Below are positions 15,864-21,425 of a stretch of 64,000 nt of DNA, in pieces. Positions within the stretch are counted from its first letter, which is position 1. Every line of letters begins with the position of its first letter. The notes under the pieces were generated by a model. That model worked only from the letters and a program-made list of their open reading frames with translations, was not told where the DNA came from and did not search any database. This stretch comes from Candidatus Omnitrophota bacterium (lineage in GTDB: Bacteria > Omnitrophota > Gorgyraeia > Duberdicusellales > 4484-171), in the NCBI GenBank assembly GCA_037146775.1, contig JBAWWL010000003.1, positions 133,956 to 197,955 of the forward strand. The letters are read 5' to 3'. The position numbers and the translations under genes were made by a program.

Positions 15864-16061
15864 ATGGCATTCCCAACAAGAGGTTTTTCCAAGAGTCCCG
15901 CGAGCAAAAACAATACGTGCAAAATTGACGAAGGAAAACTGAATCAGATGATCAAAGAGCGCGCGTATTACATTTGGGAAAGTAAAGGCAAACCCCAAGG
16001 CCAGGATAGAGCTATTTGGTTCCAGGCAGAAAAAGAAGTTCTTGCTAAAGTAAAGAAATAA
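15864..16061 (+). CDS. DUF2934-like small protein
   Basis: It has 'ERAYYIWESKGKPQGQDRAIWFQAEKE' and a strong RBS 'aaaaggagg'. Confidence 0.55.
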   Translation: MAFPTRGFSKSPASKNNTCKIDEGKLNQMIKERAYYIWESKGKPQGQDRAIWFQAEKEVLAKVKK

Positions 16062-16175: not shown

Positions 16176-16574
16176 GTGATGAAGGCAGTAAAAGGCGAAG
16201 AGATTATACTCACCATGGAAAACAAAGTTGGCGCATTAGAGGTAATAGCCAAGTTAGTCACCGATGCCGGCATTAATTTAAGGGGTATAAGCGCGTACGT
16301 TATCGATAATAAGGCTATGTTCAGGATTATTGCCTCGGATAATGCTAAAGCGAAAGACATCCTCAAGAAGGCAGGAACGATACAGACAAAAGAAGTAATT
16401 ATTGTAGATGTACCTGATGAAATAGGCCAGTTGCAAGTCCTCGCTACAAAGCTTAAGGATGCAGGTATAGATCTTACTCATATCTATGGCACTACCTCGA
16501 AACCGCACCAGTCAGCGATTATTGTATTTGCTTCAAACAATAATAATAAAGCGTTGGAAGTCATTGCTTCTTAG
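16176..16574 (+). CDS. Tandem ACT-domain protein
   Basis: It has two repeats of the form 'ILTMENKVGALEVIAKLVTDAGINL' and 'IIVDVPDEIGQLQVLATKLKDAGIDL'. Confidence 0.65.
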   Translation: MMKAVKGEEIILTMENKVGALEVIAKLVTDAGINLRGISAYVIDNKAMFRIIASDNAKAKDILKKAGTIQTKEVIIVDVPDEIGQLQVLATKLKDAGIDLTHIYGTTSKPHQSAIIVFASNNNNKALEVIAS

Positions 16575-16580
16575 CTTTTA

Positions 16581-17795
16581 ATGCGCATCCAATTTCCCTC
16601 TTCGTTTCTATGGGGGGCAGCCCTTTCTAGTTATCAGACCGAAGGGAATATTTTCAATACCGATTGGTCGCTTTGGGAACAAGAAAAAAAACTGGAACAA
16701 GCTGGCCGAGCCTGTGATCATTATCATTTATTTAAAGAGGACTTCAATTTAGCCAGCCAGCTACACCTCAATTGTCTGCGAATCTCGTTGGAGTGGGCGC
16801 GTATCTGTCCCGGTCCAGGCGTGTATCAGGAAGAGGAACTCGCGCATTACCGAGAGGTGATCGATACATTAAAGGCCTTGGGTCTTAAACCTATCATTAC
16901 TCTGCATCATTTTACCAACCCCCTTTGGTTTAGCCAGCGCGGCGGCTGGGAAAATTCAGAAAATGTTGATTTTTTCCTCGCCTATTTGAAAAAAACCGCT
17001 GGTTGTTTTAAGAAGGATATAACGTATTGGTTGATCCTTAATGAACCGCTCGTGTATATCTATAACAGTTTTGTCGCCGGGATTTGGCCGCCGGGAATAC
17101 GTTCTCTTAAAACAGCCAAAAAAGTTCTTAACAATCTCCTTTCTGCGTATATAACGGGCTACCAGGAAATAAAACATATATACAGACAAGAAGGTTTAAC
17201 TGCGCAGGTTTCTTTTGTAAAGCACATGAGAATATTTTCGCCCTGCCCCAGTTTCAGTTTCGGTCTAAATAATCTTTCAGCTTGCGTCCGGCATTACCTG
17301 TTTAATACGCAATTTCTTGATAAGGTAATTCGCGGCCGCTACCTTGATTTTATTGCCATTAACTATTATTGTAAGGAGTATGTCGCGTTTAAGGGTTTAG
17401 CCGGAGTAGAGTGCACACACAATTCTCATTCTGAAAAGAAAAATGCGCTTGGCTGGTATACTTACGCTTGTGGGCTATATAAGATACTGGTTGCCATGAA
17501 ACGTTTCAAGCTTCCCATTATTATTATGGAGAATGGGACTGCCGAAGTTTCCGATATATCATATCGCCAATTCTTACTATCCCACTTAGAAGCTTTAGGG
17601 AGGGCGTTACAGGAAGGAGTTGATGTACGGGGGTACCTTTGGTGGTCGCTCATCGATAATTTTGAATGGGATAAAGGTTTCGGCCCCCGTTTTGGCTTGA
17701 TTTCGGTCGATTATAAAAACTTAGCACGTAACGTCAAGCCATTCGCTCACACGTATGCCGGTATCTGTAAAGAGAATGCAATAGACGTTTTGTAA
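16581..17795 (+). CDS. GH1-family beta-glucosidase
   Basis: It has 'FLWGAALSSYQTEG', the catalytic acid/base 'LNEP', and the nucleophile 'IMENG'. Confidence 0.85.
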   Translation: MRIQFPSSFLWGAALSSYQTEGNIFNTDWSLWEQEKKLEQAGRACDHYHLFKEDFNLASQLHLNCLRISLEWARICPGPGVYQEEELAHYREVIDTLKALGLKPIITLHHFTNPLWFSQRGGWENSENVDFFLAYLKKTAGCFKKDITYWLILNEPLVYIYNSFVAGIWPPGIRSLKTAKKVLNNLLSAYITGYQEIKHIYRQEGLTAQVSFVKHMRIFSPCPSFSFGLNNLSACVRHYLFNTQFLDKVIRGRYLDFIAINYYCKEYVAFKGLAGVECTHNSHSEKKNALGWYTYACGLYKILVAMKRFKLPIIIMENGTAEVSDISYRQFLLSHLEALGRALQEGVDVRGYLWWSLIDNFEWDKGFGPRFGLISVDYKNLARNVKPFAHTYAGICKENAIDVL

Positions 17796-17810
17796 CCATT
17801 GTGTAATACC

Positions 17811-19661
17811 ATGGATAATAAAGACGTACAGTTTATCATTACCAACACCCCGCCTTTTAATAAACTAAAACCGGAGGAGCTCGCCCAGTTTATTGCTCTT
17901 TCCGAAGTCAAAGCATATAGAAATGGGGATATTATTTATCATAACGGAGATGCCGGAGAATATTTTTATTTTCTGTTGGCCGGCCGGGTAGCTATTCTCA
18001 ATAGCGATTATAGCCGGGATGCGGAAATAGAAACTTTAAAACGCGGTACCTGCTTTGGTATTATCTCCCTTTTTAACGATGAACCGCATTCGGTAACCGC
18101 CAAATCTACCGGCATCTCGTGGGTTCTCTTAGTTAAAAAAGATGCTTTCAAGGAATTCTTGCATGCCCACGCGATGCTTTCTCTTGAATTTTACCGGATT
18201 CTTTCGCAGCGTATACGTACAAGAGCCAAACCAAAAAAAATATTTCAATGTAAGCGCATAGCCGTGTTTGGATTCCCTTTGTCGGGCAAGACCACCTATG
18301 TGGTTCATCTGGGGCGTGAACTTATTGAGCAAACCAAAAAAAAGGTTATCTGTGTAGAATTTTCCTTAGAAAATAATTTCAGCCTTCCCGAGGTGCTCGG
18401 CAAAGAAGCTAAGCCGCTTGAACTGGAGGCATTTAGCGAAGAGCAGATCGAAGAACATATTGTACATGACAGCGTTGATGGCCTTTTGGTAAAGATAGTC
18501 AACGGAAGCAATATTCTTTCTTTATTAAATTGCCTTTATGAGCGGTATCACTTTATTGTCTACGAAATTCCTTCTGTGTTGGGCGATATGTATCTTTACG
18601 ATATGGTTGAACCGTGTGATTATTTGCATATTCTTCTTTCCGGTCACAACGAAGAGTTTACCGCTTTAGCGCATACTATCGCGGCGTTAAAAGAAAAAAG
18701 CCCGATTAACCAAGAAAAGATAAAGATTATCGTGAATGAGTCAGCCACAAAAGACATGTCTTCGCAGGAAATGGTACGTTTACTTCGGCATCCTCTCTAT
18801 GCTACCTTGCCTGTTCTCGCCAGCGATGACTATATCAAGATGATGCGCCGCATTGCGCGTCAAACGGCAGAGGTGGTGGTAGGTTTGGCGCTTGGTTCCG
18901 GAGCAGCCTACGGATTATCCCATATCGGAGTATTAAAGGTCCTTGAAGCGCACGAGATCCCCATTGATATCATCTGTGGCTCCAGTATTGGTGCGGTCAT
19001 CGCGAGCCTGTGGGCATGCGGTTACGCCGTGAGTGACATTGAAGCGATATGTAAAGATTTTGCCAAGCGTGGTAATCTTTTTTCCTTCTCTGGTATATCA
19101 TTTCCGTTTCGAGGCTTCTTTCGGATAAAACGTTTGGAGAAGGTGCTCAGAGATATTTTTAAAGATAGAACTTTTTACGACGTGAAACGAACCTTAAAAA
19201 TAGTGGCATTTGATTTCTATAAAAGAGAAACACGTGTGCTTGAAGAAGGACTCCTGTATAAAGCGCTGGCAGCCAGCTGTGCGATGCCCGGGATTTTTGA
19301 ACCCGTGCGGTTTAAAGAAGACATACTTTTAGACGGAGGTATTTTGAACCCGCTTCCTACGAAAGTGCTTCTCGGCTATGGGGTCAACAAGATAATCGCG
19401 GTCAACATCACGCCTTCAAAAGAGGAAATCTTTAATACTTACAGGAAAAAAAATAGTTTACACATTCTTGATTTCATTTTTGGCAGCATCGAAACTATGC
19501 AGGGGGAATTTGTCCAGCAGGCAATAAGCGTTGCGGATGTGGTCATTCATCCAAAACTTAACGGTTTAGGCTGGATGGAGTTTGATAAGATAGGGCCATT
19601 TATCCAGCGGGGAGAGGAAGCAGCAAGAGAAAAATTACAAGATATGAAGCGCTTATGCTAA
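17811..19661 (+). CDS. Cyclic-nucleotide-binding domain / degenerate P-loop domain / patatin-like phospholipase (NTE-like architecture)
   Basis: It has an N-terminal cNMP-binding fold ('YRNGDIIYHNGDAGEYFYFLLAGRVAIL...GTCFGIISLF'), a middle 'FGFPLSGKTT' deviant Walker-A-like segment, and a C-terminal patatin domain ('GLALGSGAAYGLSHIGVL...CGSSIGAVIASL' with GxSxG). Confidence 0.8.
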   Translation: MDNKDVQFIITNTPPFNKLKPEELAQFIALSEVKAYRNGDIIYHNGDAGEYFYFLLAGRVAILNSDYSRDAEIETLKRGTCFGIISLFNDEPHSVTAKSTGISWVLLVKKDAFKEFLHAHAMLSLEFYRILSQRIRTRAKPKKIFQCKRIAVFGFPLSGKTTYVVHLGRELIEQTKKKVICVEFSLENNFSLPEVLGKEAKPLELEAFSEEQIEEHIVHDSVDGLLVKIVNGSNILSLLNCLYERYHFIVYEIPSVLGDMYLYDMVEPCDYLHILLSGHNEEFTALAHTIAALKEKSPINQEKIKIIVNESATKDMSSQEMVRLLRHPLYATLPVLASDDYIKMMRRIARQTAEVVVGLALGSGAAYGLSHIGVLKVLEAHEIPIDIICGSSIGAVIASLWACGYAVSDIEAICKDFAKRGNLFSFSGISFPFRGFFRIKRLEKVLRDIFKDRTFYDVKRTLKIVAFDFYKRETRVLEEGLLYKALAASCAMPGIFEPVRFKEDILLDGGILNPLPTKVLLGYGVNKIIAVNITPSKEEIFNTYRKKNSLHILDFIFGSIETMQGEFVQQAISVADVVIHPKLNGLGWMEFDKIGPFIQRGEEAAREKLQDMKRLC

Positions 19662-19686
19662 TATGCCGGCGTCTTGTGGCAGAATA

Positions 19687-20712
19687 TTACTCGATTACCA
19701 GCAAAGAATTTTTTCCGCCAAAATGATCGTCTTCTTCAAGCTTGTTGTGGGGATCGGAAATCCACGAATCTCCTGCCAGAAACTTATAGCGATATTTACC
19801 TTTTTCGGATAGCGGTATATTGATGGTCCAAATATCGTTTCCGACCTTCTTTAATTTATACTGTTCTTCTTTTTTCCAGTTGTTAAAATCGCCGATGGCA
19901 TACACTTCGTTAAACTGCTCGCCTTTTAAGAAAAGCGGTTTCCAGGTTGTTTGGGAAGTGATCCGTTCTAATTCCGTCGCCAGCGCCAAGAAATCTTCAG
20001 CGCCTCGGGAATCGGGCATATATTCGAAAATTGTCTTTCCGGCCGAAGAGGCTTCTTTAAGATGTACGTTGGTACGTATACTGCTTTCCAGAACCAAACT
20101 TCCCAGCTGTTTTTTTACCTTCTCCGTGAATTCTAAAGAGAACCGGTAACGTTTATCCAGTTGATTGAGCAAATAGAACGAAACAGGAGCTTTGCCTTTG
20201 AACTCTTTGAGCATAATAATAATATCCTTCAATATTTCAACCCCGCGCAGAGAGAAGTCGCACATATTTAAGGGAATGATTGAATACGCGCTTGCTTCGA
20301 GTGCGTTGAGTGTAAGAACTCCCAAGTTAGGAGGGCAGTCTAGTACGCAATAATCAAAATTCGCCGATATGGTTTGCAGGAAAGAGGATAGAATGCTGAA
20401 CCGGTCTTCCCGCTGAGAAACTTTATATTCTAAAGACGCCAAGCCGATACGTGAAGGTATAAAGTAGAAATTGTCTGCGATTGACACATAAAGATTATCC
20501 TGCGGCAGCGCTTCTTCCAGGTACATCTTCTCTAGGATATCAGTGATGGTAGTGGTATTGTCTTTTCTTAAGGCGAACGTAGCGTGTGCCTGGGGATCCA
20601 TGTCTATCAAAAGCACCTTAAAACCTTTCTTGCTTAAGGCAGCTGAAAGGTTAACCGCCGTTATCGTTTTTCCGCAACCGCCTTTTTGATTAACCACAGA
20701 AATGATTTTCAT
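19687..20712 (-). CDS. ParA/MinD-family ATPase fused to a C-terminal CBM48/AMPK-beta-type glycogen-binding domain
   Basis: It has a deviant Walker A 'NQKGGCGKTITAVNLSAAL...LLIDMDPQ'. The C-terminal approximately 85 aa ('VYAIGDFNNWKKEE...GKYRYKFLAGDSWISDPHN') matches the CBM48/AMPK-beta GBD consensus (FNNW...YKF..DG.W..DP). Confidence 0.8.
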   Translation of the reverse strand: MKIISVVNQKGGCGKTITAVNLSAALSKKGFKVLLIDMDPQAHATFALRKDNTTTITDILEKMYLEEALPQDNLYVSIADNFYFIPSRIGLASLEYKVSQREDRFSILSSFLQTISANFDYCVLDCPPNLGVLTLNALEASAYSIIPLNMCDFSLRGVEILKDIIIMLKEFKGKAPVSFYLLNQLDKRYRFSLEFTEKVKKQLGSLVLESSIRTNVHLKEASSAGKTIFEYMPDSRGAEDFLALATELERITSQTTWKPLFLKGEQFNEVYAIGDFNNWKKEEQYKLKKVGNDIWTINIPLSEKGKYRYKFLAGDSWISDPHNKLEEDDHFGGKNSLLVIE

Positions 20713-20726
20713 CTATTCTACCCTCC

Positions 20727-21425
20727 TTAATTCATCGTTATATCTTTGATCAATACCCACTGTGTTTTATCGGTGGCTGTCGGATAAAAAGAAAACGTAA
20801 TCTGATTTATGCGATATAGATTGGCGTTTTGCACCCCAGCGCTTTTAAGGTCGACGGGCACCTTTACGTAAGAAACTGTTTCGTCCGTAATTTCGCTCGT
20901 GGCGGGATGCAAAGAATTAGAAAAGAAATTACTGTCGCGTACTGTTACTGCCATCGTAAGCGGCGTTGATGATTTTTGCAGATGAACCATTAGCGTCCCG
21001 GACGCAAGGTCGATTGGTTTCTTCAGCGTTATGATAAACGTTGTCGAATTGCGCGGTGTAATGGTAATATGTATAGCCGATGAGCCTTTTTTTATTTTCT
21101 GTGTATCGGAAGAATCAAGAGAAGAAAAGATTTCCCCGTGTAGCAACGAATTGGCATTGTTATCTATTATGGCTGTCTGGCGGGCGATGACCATGAATTC
21201 GTATTTCGTTAAAAAGAATATCAGCGTAGCGGTTAAGGCGAAAACCACCATTACTATCGAGAGAATAAGCAGATTTCTATGGTGGGGTTTCTTTTTTCTT
21301 TTTTTCTTGGGCGGAGAGAAAAAAGTATCTTTTAACCGCTGAGAATCGAGATAGCTGTATGATGCAAAAGGATTATCTCGTTTGTCCACAAAAAATATAT
21401 TAGCATTGAATTTTAGAAAAATCAA
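20727..21425 (-). CDS. Hypothetical membrane-anchored protein with poly-basic N-terminal tail; co-operonic with the ParA-CBM48 gene
   Basis: It has 'PPKKKRKKKPHHR' followed by a TM helix and an approximately 150-aa beta-rich extracytoplasmic domain. It lies 14 nt upstream of the ParA-like gene on the same strand. Confidence 0.5.
   Translation of the reverse strand: MIFLKFNANIFFVDKRDNPFASYSYLDSQRLKDTFFSPPKKKRKKKPHHRNLLILSIVMVVFALTATLIFFLTKYEFMVIARQTAIIDNNANSLLHGEIFSSLDSSDTQKIKKGSSAIHITITPRNSTTFIITLKKPIDLASGTLMVHLQKSSTPLTMAVTVRDSNFFSNSLHPATSEITDETVSYVKVPVDLKSAGVQNANLYRINQITFSFYPTATDKTQWVLIKDITMN

Follow-up and report, generated by a model that had tools for sequence, protein, structure and literature searches.

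We analyzed a 64-kb stretch of DNA (the window) from a Candidatus Omnitrophota bacterium, in which a predicted lipase of 616 residues is encoded between a GH1 glycosidase gene and a convergent gene. The lipase open reading frame spans 17799/17811..19661 on the + strand; the ATG at 17811 gives a protein that starts with MDNKDV, which agrees with the family consensus N-terminus MDxKExKFI. NCBI lists a protein of 100% identity under the name ‘patatin-like phospholipase family protein [Candidatus Omnitrophota bacterium]’. Relatives carry the name ‘NTE family protein’ at JGI. The genes and features of the locus are as follows.

16176..16574, + strand: ACT-pair protein of 132 aa, a frequent upstream operon partner (Pfam ACT/ACT_8, E about 1e-11)
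16581..17795, + strand: GH1 glycosidase of 404 aa, the conserved upstream operon partner (Pfam PF00232, E 1.7e-74)
17811..19661 including the stop codon, + strand: whole lipase gene, encoding a 616-aa protein with a cyclic-nucleotide-binding (CNB) fold, a ParA/MinD-like domain and a patatin lipase (from the list of open reading frames)
17811..18212, + strand: CNB domain, residues 1-134, with C-terminal hinge helices 110-132 (Pfam PF00027, PDB matches, Foldseek)
18039..18101, + strand: re-tooled phosphate-binding cassette KRGTCFGIISLFNDEPHSVTA, residues 77-97, with Ile84 for Glu and His93 for Arg (residue-by-residue alignment to PKG and PKA)
18213..18251, + strand: inter-domain linker, residues 135-147 (IRTRAKPKKIFQC), with pLDDT <50 at 135-141 and conserved K142, F145 and Q146
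18252..18866, + strand: P-loop domain of the ParA/MinD class (CpaE/TadZ-like), residues 148-352, with a predicted deficiency in hydrolysis
18270..18293, + strand: Walker A GFPLSGKT, residues 154-161, without the ParA/MinD signature Lys (aligns to SGKGGTGKTT of MinD 1ion)
18345..18368, + strand: Walker A'/switch I-equivalent strand VICVEFSL, with Glu183 and Ser185 presumably at the two Asp places of MinD
18549..18572, + strand: Walker B-like strand HFIVYEIP, residues 247-254, with Glu252 for the usual Asp (aligned to YDFILIDCP of MinD and YDYIIVDF of 3ea0)
18867..19370, + strand: patatin-like lipase core, residues 353-520 (Pfam PF01734, Foldseek)
18894..18914, + strand: Gly-rich oxyanion loop GSGAAYG, residues 362-368, with Tyr367 for the usual Arg/Lys (aligned to SGGAARG of PlpD)
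18978..18992, + strand: nucleophile elbow GSSIG with the catalytic Ser392
19332..19340, + strand: DGG motif with the catalytic Asp508
19371..19658, + strand: C-terminal extension of the RssA/PlpD-type patatin domain, residues 521-616, with an invariant DFIFGSIETMQ helix (aligns to PlpD residues 122-282)
19687..20712, - strand: convergent canonical ParA fused to a CBM48/AMPK glycogen-binding module, given as context and outside the lipase system (Pfam AAA_31, E 2e-46; AMPK1_CBM, E 1.9e-8)

The stop codon of the GH1 gene lies 15 nt before the lipase ATG, and a GH1 gene is found directly upstream on the same strand in 39 of 43 related loci; the translation from the window shows the NEP and ENG catalytic motifs. 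The ACT-pair gene is present in 30 of the 43 loci. On the other side, exactly 25 nt (19662-19686) part the lipase stop from that of ParA-CBM48, as an earlier note on this DNA had stated. The tail-to-tail arrangement is real here but incidental. ParA-CBM48 adjoins the lipase gene in only about 13 of the 43 related loci; a GH57 glycogen cluster and ParA-CBM48 flank the lipase gene here and in about 13 loci. An exported DUF3108 open reading frame with a signal peptide immediately follows the lipase gene in 32 of the 43 loci (31 of the 40 unique ones), AsmA-family and YfiO/BamD-like genes lie directly upstream in two loci of a subclade (L034 and L010), and LpxA-like genes follow DUF3108 in two others (L005 and L007). 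In the 64-kb window itself, genes resembling DUF3108 or AsmA were not found. The contexts of GH1/glycogen and of AsmA/LpxA indicate differing roles. Some of this synteny may reflect not functional coupling but common descent of the gene order within one phylum.

The three-part layout of a CNB fold, a P-loop domain and a patatin domain, which the earlier note had read from the open reading frame, is correct. Pfam returned a single cNMP_binding match (PF00027) at residues 34-119 (67.4 bits, cut-off 27.5, E 1.1e-18) and a patatin match (PF01734) at residues 359-520 (113 bits, cut-off 27.7, E 2.6e-32). The full-length AF2 model (pLDDT 81.7, pTM 0.76) predicts that the lipase is a compact unit. No transmembrane segment, signal peptide or obvious membrane-targeting helix was found in the protein, which suggests that it is cytoplasmic; its most hydrophobic 19-residue stretch is the buried nucleophile-elbow region (Kyte-Doolittle 1.75), and the N-terminus is non-hydrophobic.

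The catalytic domain is the most conserved of the three (mean column identity 0.74) and has the patatin alpha/beta fold. Its top Foldseek match is PlpD of Pseudomonas aeruginosa (5fya, E 7.5e-18, target TM-score 0.83), followed by matches that include CapE, CapV and potato patatin 1oxw, and PDB entry 5fqu (PlpD) matches the lipase at E 1.9e-25. By both sequence and fold, the closest catalytic domains are therefore those of the PlpD/RssA/YchK-type lipases (COG1752, ‘NTE family protein’), with which the lipase shares the Ser-Asp dyad, the register of the GSG..G loop and the C-terminal helical extension, in which D554, F555, F557, G558, S559, E561, M563 and Q564 are invariant. In contrast, PlpD is a secreted type Vd passenger with a POTRA domain and a beta-barrel and RssA has a single domain, whereas the lipase is apparently cytoplasmic, has two N-terminal, probably regulatory domains and carries Tyr for the oxyanion-loop Arg. 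The GSSIG and DGG motifs reported earlier were confirmed, with G390, S392, G394, D508, G509 and G510 invariant in 36 of 36 aligned relatives; among sister proteins, GxSxG is kept in 166 of 170 and DGG in 169 of 170. The oxyanion loop, G362-S-G-A-A-Y-G368, does not literally fit the GxGxxG that was also reported. Position 367 is Tyr or Phe in 113 of 113 scorable family members, so that the conserved Arg/Lys of patatins is absent, and the same position in sister proteins is L, F, M, Y or H in 159 of 164 scorable cases (Arg in 4, Ser in 1); the sister families mostly have GSGAALG and the family of the window protein GSGAA[Y/F]G. The GCGFLG motif of ATGL is likewise a Gly-rich oxyanion loop without Arg/Lys. 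No specific sequence relationship to the ATGL/PNPLA2 neutral-lipid lipases was detected, and this likeness is a lead on substrate class only. The best reading of these motifs is that the patatin domain is catalytically competent, with a Ser392/Asp508 dyad.

The N-terminal domain has the CNB beta-barrel fold followed by hinge helices. Its PDB sequence matches are PKG, PKA-R and Epac, Foldseek aligned it to domains of PKA-R, HCN2, PKG and CRP (E about 1e-10), and apicomplexan CNB proteins match it at E 1e-21 to 1e-19. In a canonical phosphate-binding cassette, the Glu of FGE touches the ribose 2'-OH and the Arg of PR[ST]A binds the cyclic phosphate; mutation of this Arg in CAP, PKA and HCN lowers the affinity for cNMP by orders of magnitude. 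When the lipase was aligned to the PKG and PKA cassettes, Ile84 fell on the FGE Glu and His93 on the PR[ST] Arg. The Glu position is I, M, L or V in 117 of 117 scorable family members, and the Arg position is His in all 117 as well as in 151 of 151 scorable sister proteins; FGE is kept in 111 of these 151. The domain as a whole is well conserved (mean column identity 0.68), the cassette region is among its most conserved parts, and R78, F82, G83, I85, S86, H93 and S94 are invariant in 36 of 36 aligned relatives, a pattern that would be expected of a working pocket or interface and not of a decaying one. Since both replacements are fixed, the sensor most likely binds something besides canonical cAMP or cGMP, or else serves as a fixed allosteric or interaction module. 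A nucleotide-type ligand is conceivable, since a His in its protonated form could reach a phosphate and FGE survives in most sister proteins.

The earlier note had proposed a second-messenger gate whose ligand (cAMP, cGMP or other) the sequence does not reveal. Taken as gating by cAMP or cGMP, this would be a switch like that of PKA-R or Epac attached to the patatin domain. Such a gate would fit the strong fold match (E 1e-18 in Pfam), the hinge helices after the barrel, the highly conserved pocket region and a hydrogen bond that His93 could give to a phosphate, and also the likeness in PADLOC to the CNB domains of Pycsar effectors, which bind cyclic pyrimidines (PycTIR match to the CNB region, E 5.5e-7). 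However, the conserved Arg and Glu that define the pocket are replaced throughout the family, and no cyclase gene was found in the 8 annotated neighborhoods. We therefore consider a genuine cAMP- or cGMP-gated lipase unlikely, and this part of the earlier proposal is not upheld.

Residues 148-352 form a complete, confidently folded ParA/MinD domain (predicted structure with pLDDT 89 and pTM 0.87), and the middle part is thus a whole folded domain rather than a mere motif-bearing segment. The domain is unusual, as had been suspected: of 1.84 billion representative proteins, 225 match its profile at E<=1e-3. The window protein stays below the Pfam thresholds for CbiA (14.8-17.3 against 25.4 bits) and AAA_31 (12.9-16 against 27 bits), and some relatives score significantly (best E 1.7e-6). 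It is also the least conserved domain of the three (mean column identity 0.53). Its closest likeness is to the CpaE/TadZ group (PDB 3fkq; ParA-family ATPase 3ea0), and the nearest other architecture that contains it is a Response_reg domain joined to a ParA-like domain, which is of the CpaE/TadZ type. TadZ proteins are ParA/MinD-like localization factors with an atypical Walker A (bioRxiv 10.64898/2026.07.08.737194). Unlike CpaE/TadZ, the lipase has a CNB fold instead of a receiver at the N-terminus and a lipase fused at the C-terminus, and no tad/cpa pilus genes were found adjoining its gene.

A Walker-A-like FGFPLSGKTT in this domain had been described as deviant; the motif is present, but G154-F-P-L-S-G-K-T161 fits the classical GxxxxGK[ST], and it is relative to the KGGxxGK[ST] of ParA/MinD that the signature Lys and the GG are missing. 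Phe155 stands at the position of this Lys, which is required for the ATP sandwich dimer, and the column holds F, A, P, L, E or S across the family. From the alignment, Glu183, Ser185 and Glu252 presumably correspond to D38, D40 and D120 of E. coli MinD; column 183 contains E in 23, Q in 11 and R in 2 sequences. At the Walker B position, 252, Glu is found in 101 of 114 scorable family members, so the residue is acidic and the canonical Asp pattern is absent, while D223 and, by the Walker B-like strand, E244 and H247 are invariant. The P-loop is intact in 94 of 113 family members and lost in 19 (17%), and it is degenerate in most sister proteins; the idea of a pseudo-NTPase domain thus proved broadly right at the level of the family. 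The loss of the signature Lys and the apparent loss of the catalytic Asp, together with the tolerated loss of the P-loop, suggest that the middle domain is most likely not an ATPase motor. From these motif states, it is most likely a dimerization, scaffold or localization module that would bind nucleotide at most. Within the window protein’s own family, 83% of the members keep GxxxxGK[ST] and an acidic Walker B, and ATP binding or even slow hydrolysis may be relevant there.

The neighboring ParA was considered as a recent duplicate of the middle domain and rejected, since hhalign aligns the two at E 0.034 with 20% identity and the neighbor has a canonical KGGCGKT. A tie between loss of the P-loop and loss of ParA-CBM48 was rejected as well: at one locus (L006, protein P0107) the P-loop is lost and the neighbor kept, and at another (L008, P0100) the reverse holds.

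If the middle domain were a working ParA/MinD ATPase, it could place the lipase on the nucleoid, the membrane or a storage granule, perhaps in concert with ParA-CBM48 and the glycogen genes. The full ParA/MinD fold, the intact GxxxxGKT of the window protein and of most family members, and the ParA-CBM48 and GH57 glycogen cluster at this locus and about 13 loci are consistent with such a role. Against it, the domain lacks the signature Lys and appears to have other residues at the switch I Asp positions, and where the P-loop has been lost, in the family as in most sister families, the lipase motifs are still intact. In addition, ParA-CBM48 is missing in about two thirds of the loci, its adjacency does not follow the state of the P-loop, and the two ParA-type domains are only remotely related. 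Positioning by an active ATPase is therefore improbable.

The lipase belongs to an Omnitrophota-wide family, and the three-domain combination occurs almost only in this uncultured phylum, where it is conserved in several paralogous families. A second paralog was not found within the 64-kb window. A description of the fusion was not found in the open-access literature, and such an absence is weak evidence. The earlier note had likened the protein to neuropathy target esterase (NTE), and it does resemble PNPLA6/NTE (Swiss-cheese) and PNPLA7 in that a CNB fold precedes the patatin esterase, which is of one broad branch in all of them. NTE carries a transmembrane segment at its N-terminus, possesses three CNB domains and lacks a ParA-like domain, and its C-terminal region has bacterial homologues (PMC9025805). 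The lipase, in contrast, has no transmembrane segment and only one CNB domain, the cassette of which is re-tooled; a ParA/MinD-like domain stands between its sensor and its enzyme part, and its patatin domain is nearest to PlpD/RssA. The order of CNB before patatin thus holds, and the name NTE-like describes a loose analogy, not orthology.

The protein could also be an ordinary housekeeping lysophospholipase of the RssA/YchK type that carries its two extra domains as baggage without a regulatory role. RssA (NF007623) is indeed its best NCBIfam match (E 1e-29), and the JGI name of its relatives points the same way, but the score of 103.7 bits is well under the equivalog cut-off of 272. Moreover, conservation of the CNB domain comes close to that of the catalytic domain, and hundreds of proteins, with identities as low as 27%, retain the three-domain architecture, for which the model predicts a compact unit; this makes the explanation quite improbable. 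The protein is very unlikely to serve as a CBASS/Pycsar-type effector of anti-phage defense or abortive infection, combining a nucleotide sensor with a membrane-destroying phospholipase: it shares with CapV and CapE the patatin fold (Foldseek E 1e-13 to 1e-10) and the logic of a ligand-controlled lipase, with Pycsar effectors the use of a CNB domain for sensing, and it matches PADLOC phospholipase effector models (E 4.8e-13) and the NCBIfam models CBASS_lipase and DS2_1 antiphage lipase (E about 1e-9), but the scores lie far under the curated cut-offs (36.5 against 200 bits for CBASS_lipase) and reflect only generic domain-level similarity, the canonical cNMP contacts are missing, no cyclase or other defense gene is adjacent and none of the neighbors has a PADLOC match, and a stable, housekeeping-type neighborhood across the phylum with several paralogous families is unlike a mobile defense island.

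Taken together, these results favor, with a probability of roughly 55%, a soluble cytoplasmic lipid acyl hydrolase of the PlpD/RssA branch that is probably controlled by its two fused modules and that would respond to a non-canonical ligand. We conjecture an allosteric route through the hinge helices and the ParA-like domain: a signal at the CNB pocket would move the hinge helices (residues 110-132), this movement would change the packing or dimerization of the ParA-like domain, and the repacking would open or shut the way to the Ser392/Asp508 active site. The absence of Arg/Lys from the oxyanion loop, together with the close operon association with GH1, suggests a substrate other than ordinary phospholipid, possibly a glycolipid, a lysolipid or a neutral lipid. 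The link to an exported DUF3108 protein and the AsmA/BamD-like genes of the subclade add an association with envelope lipids, and we infer that overall the protein might turn over lipids in connection with either envelope or carbohydrate metabolism in these bacteria.

A more specific reading, which we offer tentatively and hold to be unlikely, is that the His-for-Arg cassette, seen in every one of roughly 270 scorable proteins from several paralogous Omnitrophota families, is a new ligand specificity of the CNB fold, and that a TadZ-like pseudo-ATPase dimerization module relays binding so as to switch on a patatin hydrolase with glycolipids or neutral lipids as its substrates. The ligand might then be a nucleoside or a nucleotide that is not cyclic, an acyl or lipid metabolite, or a sugar phosphate connected with the GH1 and ACT genes of the operon. 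If this reading is true, the protein would be an undescribed three-module signaling lipase that couples carbohydrate status to the turnover of envelope or storage lipids.

Control of patatin-like lipases usually comes from partners or from oligomerization, as with ubiquitin for ExoU, Rab5 for VipD and cyclic nucleotides for CapV; the lipase described here would be a self-contained version of such control, with two built-in regulatory modules. Its fixed His-for-Arg cassette is a clear example from nature with which to ask what other signals the CNB fold can sense, and it is a caution for annotation, in that a cNMP_binding match in Pfam does not mean regulation by cAMP or cGMP unless the cassette has been checked. 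The TadZ-like domain would be a further example of the ParA/MinD fold reused as a non-motor scaffold. Omnitrophota are ultra-small, partly predatory bacteria, and we know of no well-studied cultured model for the phylum; the three-domain architecture could be a handle on how these bacteria manage their envelope or storage lipids.

The ORF list places the lipase gene at 17799/17811..19661 (+), and translation from the 17811 ATG begins with MDNKDVQFII..., in agreement with the consensus N-terminus of its relatives (MDxKExKFI); the coordinates 17811-19661 proposed in the earlier note are therefore right. A Pfam search of the 616-aa protein found both predicted domains, with cNMP_binding (E 1.1e-18) spanning residues 34-119 and Patatin (E 2.6e-32) spanning residues 359-520, and between them only sub-threshold matches to CbiA, AAA_31 and KTI12. 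A full-length AlphaFold2 model built with 36 relatives as input (pLDDT 81.7, pTM 0.76) is confident and compact, with disorder confined to the 135-141 linker and the loop at 428-431. The label NTE-like holds only as to architectural logic, in that a CNB fold lies upstream of a patatin esterase, but NTE itself has a transmembrane anchor and a triple CNB array (PMC9025805), both of which are absent here. Neither a transmembrane segment nor a signal peptide was found in the lipase sequence. Three motifs are encoded where the earlier note had placed them:

Sequence motifs within the lipase gene
18270-18293, + strand, Walker A motif GFPLSGKT
18978-18992, + strand, nucleophile elbow GSSIG
19332-19340, + strand, DGG motif

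The first of these had been called deviant; the motif is indeed present, but its form is the classical GxxxxGK[ST]. Motif states were read from an alignment of 36 relatives (47-86% identity) and then from a census of 120 members of the lipase's own family and 170 sister proteins.

Pfam, PDB sequence alignments and Foldseek all show that the N-terminal domain is a CNB fold followed by hinge helices. In a residue-level alignment to PKG- and PKA-type cassettes, the Glu of FGE corresponds to Ile84 and the Arg of PR[ST] to His93, which is the Arg/Glu loss that the earlier note had itself named as refuting its reading. At the cassette Arg position, every family member (117/117) and every sister protein (151/151) that could be scored has His. 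At the cassette Glu position, all 117 family members that could be scored have a hydrophobic residue, but 111 of the 151 sister proteins have Glu. Conservation across the cassette ranks among the highest in the protein, and mean column identity is 0.68 in the CNB domain, 0.74 in the catalytic core and 0.53, the lowest value, in the ParA-like domain. Since the cassette is strongly conserved with its Glu and Arg replaced, the pocket of this family is, judged from the alignments, constrained but re-tooled and non-canonical. The headline claim of cyclic-nucleotide gating is not supported. A true cNMP-gated lipase would agree with the strong CNB fold match and with the FGE of sister proteins, and the His could contact phosphate, but both defining contacts are lost and the loss is fixed, which makes this explanation quite improbable.

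The profile of the middle domain also matches 3ea0 (E 5e-4) and MinD, and 13/28 relatives match CbiA or AAA_31 on their own sequence; this region is thus not a new fold, nor is it merely a linker, as the earlier note had allowed it might be. The signature Lys of KGGxxGK[ST] is replaced by Phe155, in a column that varies across the family, the switch I strand is VICVEFS where MinD has two Asp, and the Walker B acid is Glu252. The P-loop is intact in 94/113 family members, destroyed in 19 and degenerate in most sister proteins. The middle domain is a ParA/MinD-fold domain predicted to lack the features required for the ATP sandwich-dimer cycle. As the lipase motifs are intact where the P-loop is gone, nucleotide hydrolysis cannot, on this sequence evidence, be essential for the conserved function of the three-domain architecture, and nucleotide binding by the middle domain may matter in the lipase's own family.

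The convergent neighbour at 19687..20712 (-) combines a canonical ParA (KGGCGKT; AAA_31 E 2e-46) with an AMPK1_CBM/CBM48 module in one fusion protein. A working ParA-type positioning ATPase within the lipase could be argued from the intact GxxxxGKT of the window protein and from the ParA-CBM48 and glycogen genes beside it. However, the signature Lys is missing, relatives have lost the P-loop, and the adjacency that the earlier note had reported, real in the window, is only occasional elsewhere: the GH57 glycogen cluster with a convergent ParA-CBM48 gene was found at only ~13 unique loci. In addition, the presence of ParA-CBM48 does not track P-loop integrity across loci, and hhalign shows no more than a remote relationship between its ParA domain and the lipase middle domain (E 0.034). 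We consider such an ATPase unlikely. ParA-CBM48 is followed by a conserved protein of ~220-260 aa (20727-21425, -; no Pfam match, 26-50% identity across loci), and both occur in the window and at loci L001-L003, L006, L011-L013, L023, L026, L028, L029 and L039 of other genomes. The pair recurs in Omnitrophota beside three GH57 genes plus DUF2934, and could represent ParA-based positioning of glycogen granules, with the ~220-260-aa protein as partner.

By sequence (phmmer E 1.9e-25) and by fold (Foldseek E 7.5e-18, target TM-score 0.83), the closest match of the C-terminal domain is Pseudomonas PlpD. The GxSxG Ser and the DGG Asp are invariant in the family and are kept in 166/170 and 169/170 sister proteins, respectively, and the lipase is almost certainly an active enzyme with an intact Ser-Asp patatin hydrolase site. 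The catalytic domain has the features of the patatin family except for the oxyanion-loop Arg/Lys, which is absent throughout the family (Tyr or Phe instead) and rare in sister proteins (mainly Leu or Phe). In the window protein the Gly-rich loop, previously given as GxGxxG, is in fact GSGAAYG, with Tyr at the Arg position of PlpD. This absence is reminiscent of the neutral-lipid lipase ATGL, which likewise lacks the oxyanion-loop Arg/Lys. The RssA model also matches the domain (E 1e-29), yet under its equivalog cut-off, and a plain RssA-type enzyme with inert extra domains is contradicted by the conservation of the CNB domain and by an architecture kept across hundreds of proteins; we regard it as distinctly unlikely.

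A 100% identical protein is listed at NCBI as 'patatin-like phospholipase family protein [Candidatus Omnitrophota bacterium]', and more than 120 full-length relatives (605-635 aa), labelled 'NTE family protein' at JGI, come nearly all from Omnitrophota. In a scan of species-representative genomes, the middle-domain pattern was found in 34 species, all Omnitrophota-type MAGs save a few that seem to be artefacts of binning or labelling. An exhaustive HMMER search of 1.84 billion representatives with the middle-domain profile gave only 225 matches at E<=1e-3, in three groups:

Proteins matched by the middle-domain profile
The lipase's own family, ~615-625 aa
Proteins with the cNMP + ParA-like + patatin architecture, ~645-715 aa
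Response_reg + ParA-like proteins of the CpaE/TadZ type, ~400 aa

The nearest other architecture with this domain is thus that of CpaE/TadZ, a group of ParA/MinD-like localisation factors whose Walker A is atypical (bioRxiv 10.64898/2026.07.08.737194). A sister family of ~690 aa has more than 500 members, and those that carry an organism name are likewise from Omnitrophota. With matches in several families and nearly confined to Omnitrophota, the three-domain lipase is a hallmark at the level of the phylum and comprises several paralogous families. The sister proteins P0130-P0385 (~645-715 aa) form at least one further large paralogous family of the same architecture, in which FGE is kept, the cassette Arg position is His and the P-loop is mostly degenerate or TadZ-like (KGxG[KRS][ST]); one sister protein, P0158, carries a long hydrophobic insertion within the patatin domain, which suggests membrane insertion. 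The Omnitrophota-specific lipase gene and its synteny were also seen in genomes with other labels (L014, L016, L018, L019, L021, L025, L033, L036-L038 and L042), including several 'uncultured Planctomycetia bacterium' (TPA assemblies) and one 'Methanosarcinales archaeon', and the related protein P0038 carries the label Aenigmatarchaeota; taxonomic mislabelling or contamination during binning is the probable cause.

Gene context was compared in eight annotated neighbourhoods and, by tblastn, across the window and 42 other loci. A GH1 glycosidase gene lies directly upstream on the same strand in 39/43 loci, with gaps often of 3-20 nt and an overlap in one, and an ACT-pair protein is encoded upstream of GH1 in 30 loci. 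Directly downstream, 32/43 loci (31/40 unique) have a ~235-aa ORF with a signal peptide and a DUF3108 match (E 7.6e-8). This gene is absent next to the lipase gene in the window and in L026, and has no homologue anywhere in the 64-kb window, which is why the lipase gene abuts ParA-CBM48 in a tight tail-to-tail junction with, as the earlier note had it, exactly 25 nt between stops. In most relatives the DUF3108-like gene separates the lipase gene from the gene that comes next (19662-19686 compared with L001-L008). The gene after DUF3108 is LpxA-like in L005 and L007. In the subclade of L034 and L010, the lipase gene comes after an AsmA-family gene and a gene for a YfiO/BamD-like TPR protein, with starts overlapping or close; proteins of these kinds are outer-membrane assembly or lipid-transfer factors. 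There (L034 5020-9449, L010 4632-9452) the AsmA-family protein has ~680 aa, the lipase gene is not beside GH1, in L034 it begins in an overlap with the AsmA gene and in L010 ~365 nt past that gene, and a hemerythrin and a BrkB-family gene are found downstream. By these counts the stable partners are GH1 (plus ACT) and the exported DUF3108 protein, ParA-CBM48 is occasional, and envelope-lipid neighbours are recurrent. A CBASS/Pycsar-like defence effector is highly improbable, given generic domain similarity under cut-offs, no cyclase in the annotated neighbourhoods and a phylum-wide housekeeping synteny.

The window GH1 (16581-17795, +) has 404 aa, short for its family, lacks a signal peptide and keeps both catalytic motifs, NEP and ENG, intact; its pairing with the lipase gene sets a beta-glycosidase beside a lipid acyl hydrolase phylum-wide. 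A 65-aa DUF2934 protein (15864-16061, +), conserved between the GH57 4-alpha-glucanotransferase and ACT genes, weakly matches DUF7067 of alpha-glucan water dikinase (E 0.0014), which hints at a glucan-related role.

We read the three-domain protein as a real, somewhat unusual and probably regulated lipase. The pairing of CNB and patatin domains is already known and present in database names; in the open-access literature we found no description of a TadZ-like domain between them, of the fixed His cassette or of the Omnitrophota-wide paralog expansion. In the general mechanism that we favour, with a probability of about 0.55, the CNB module would sense a ligand other than canonical cAMP/cGMP, or be a fixed regulatory interface, and its hinge helices would transmit to the TadZ-like domain, a putative dimerisation, scaffold or localisation module that would control access to the lipase active site. 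With considerably less confidence than this mechanism, the absent oxyanion-loop Arg/Lys and the tight coupling to GH1 suggest a glycolipid, lysolipid or neutral-lipid substrate and not bulk phospholipid, and the AsmA, BamD, DUF3108 and LpxA associations suggest, at a similarly reduced level of confidence, a role in envelope lipid turnover.
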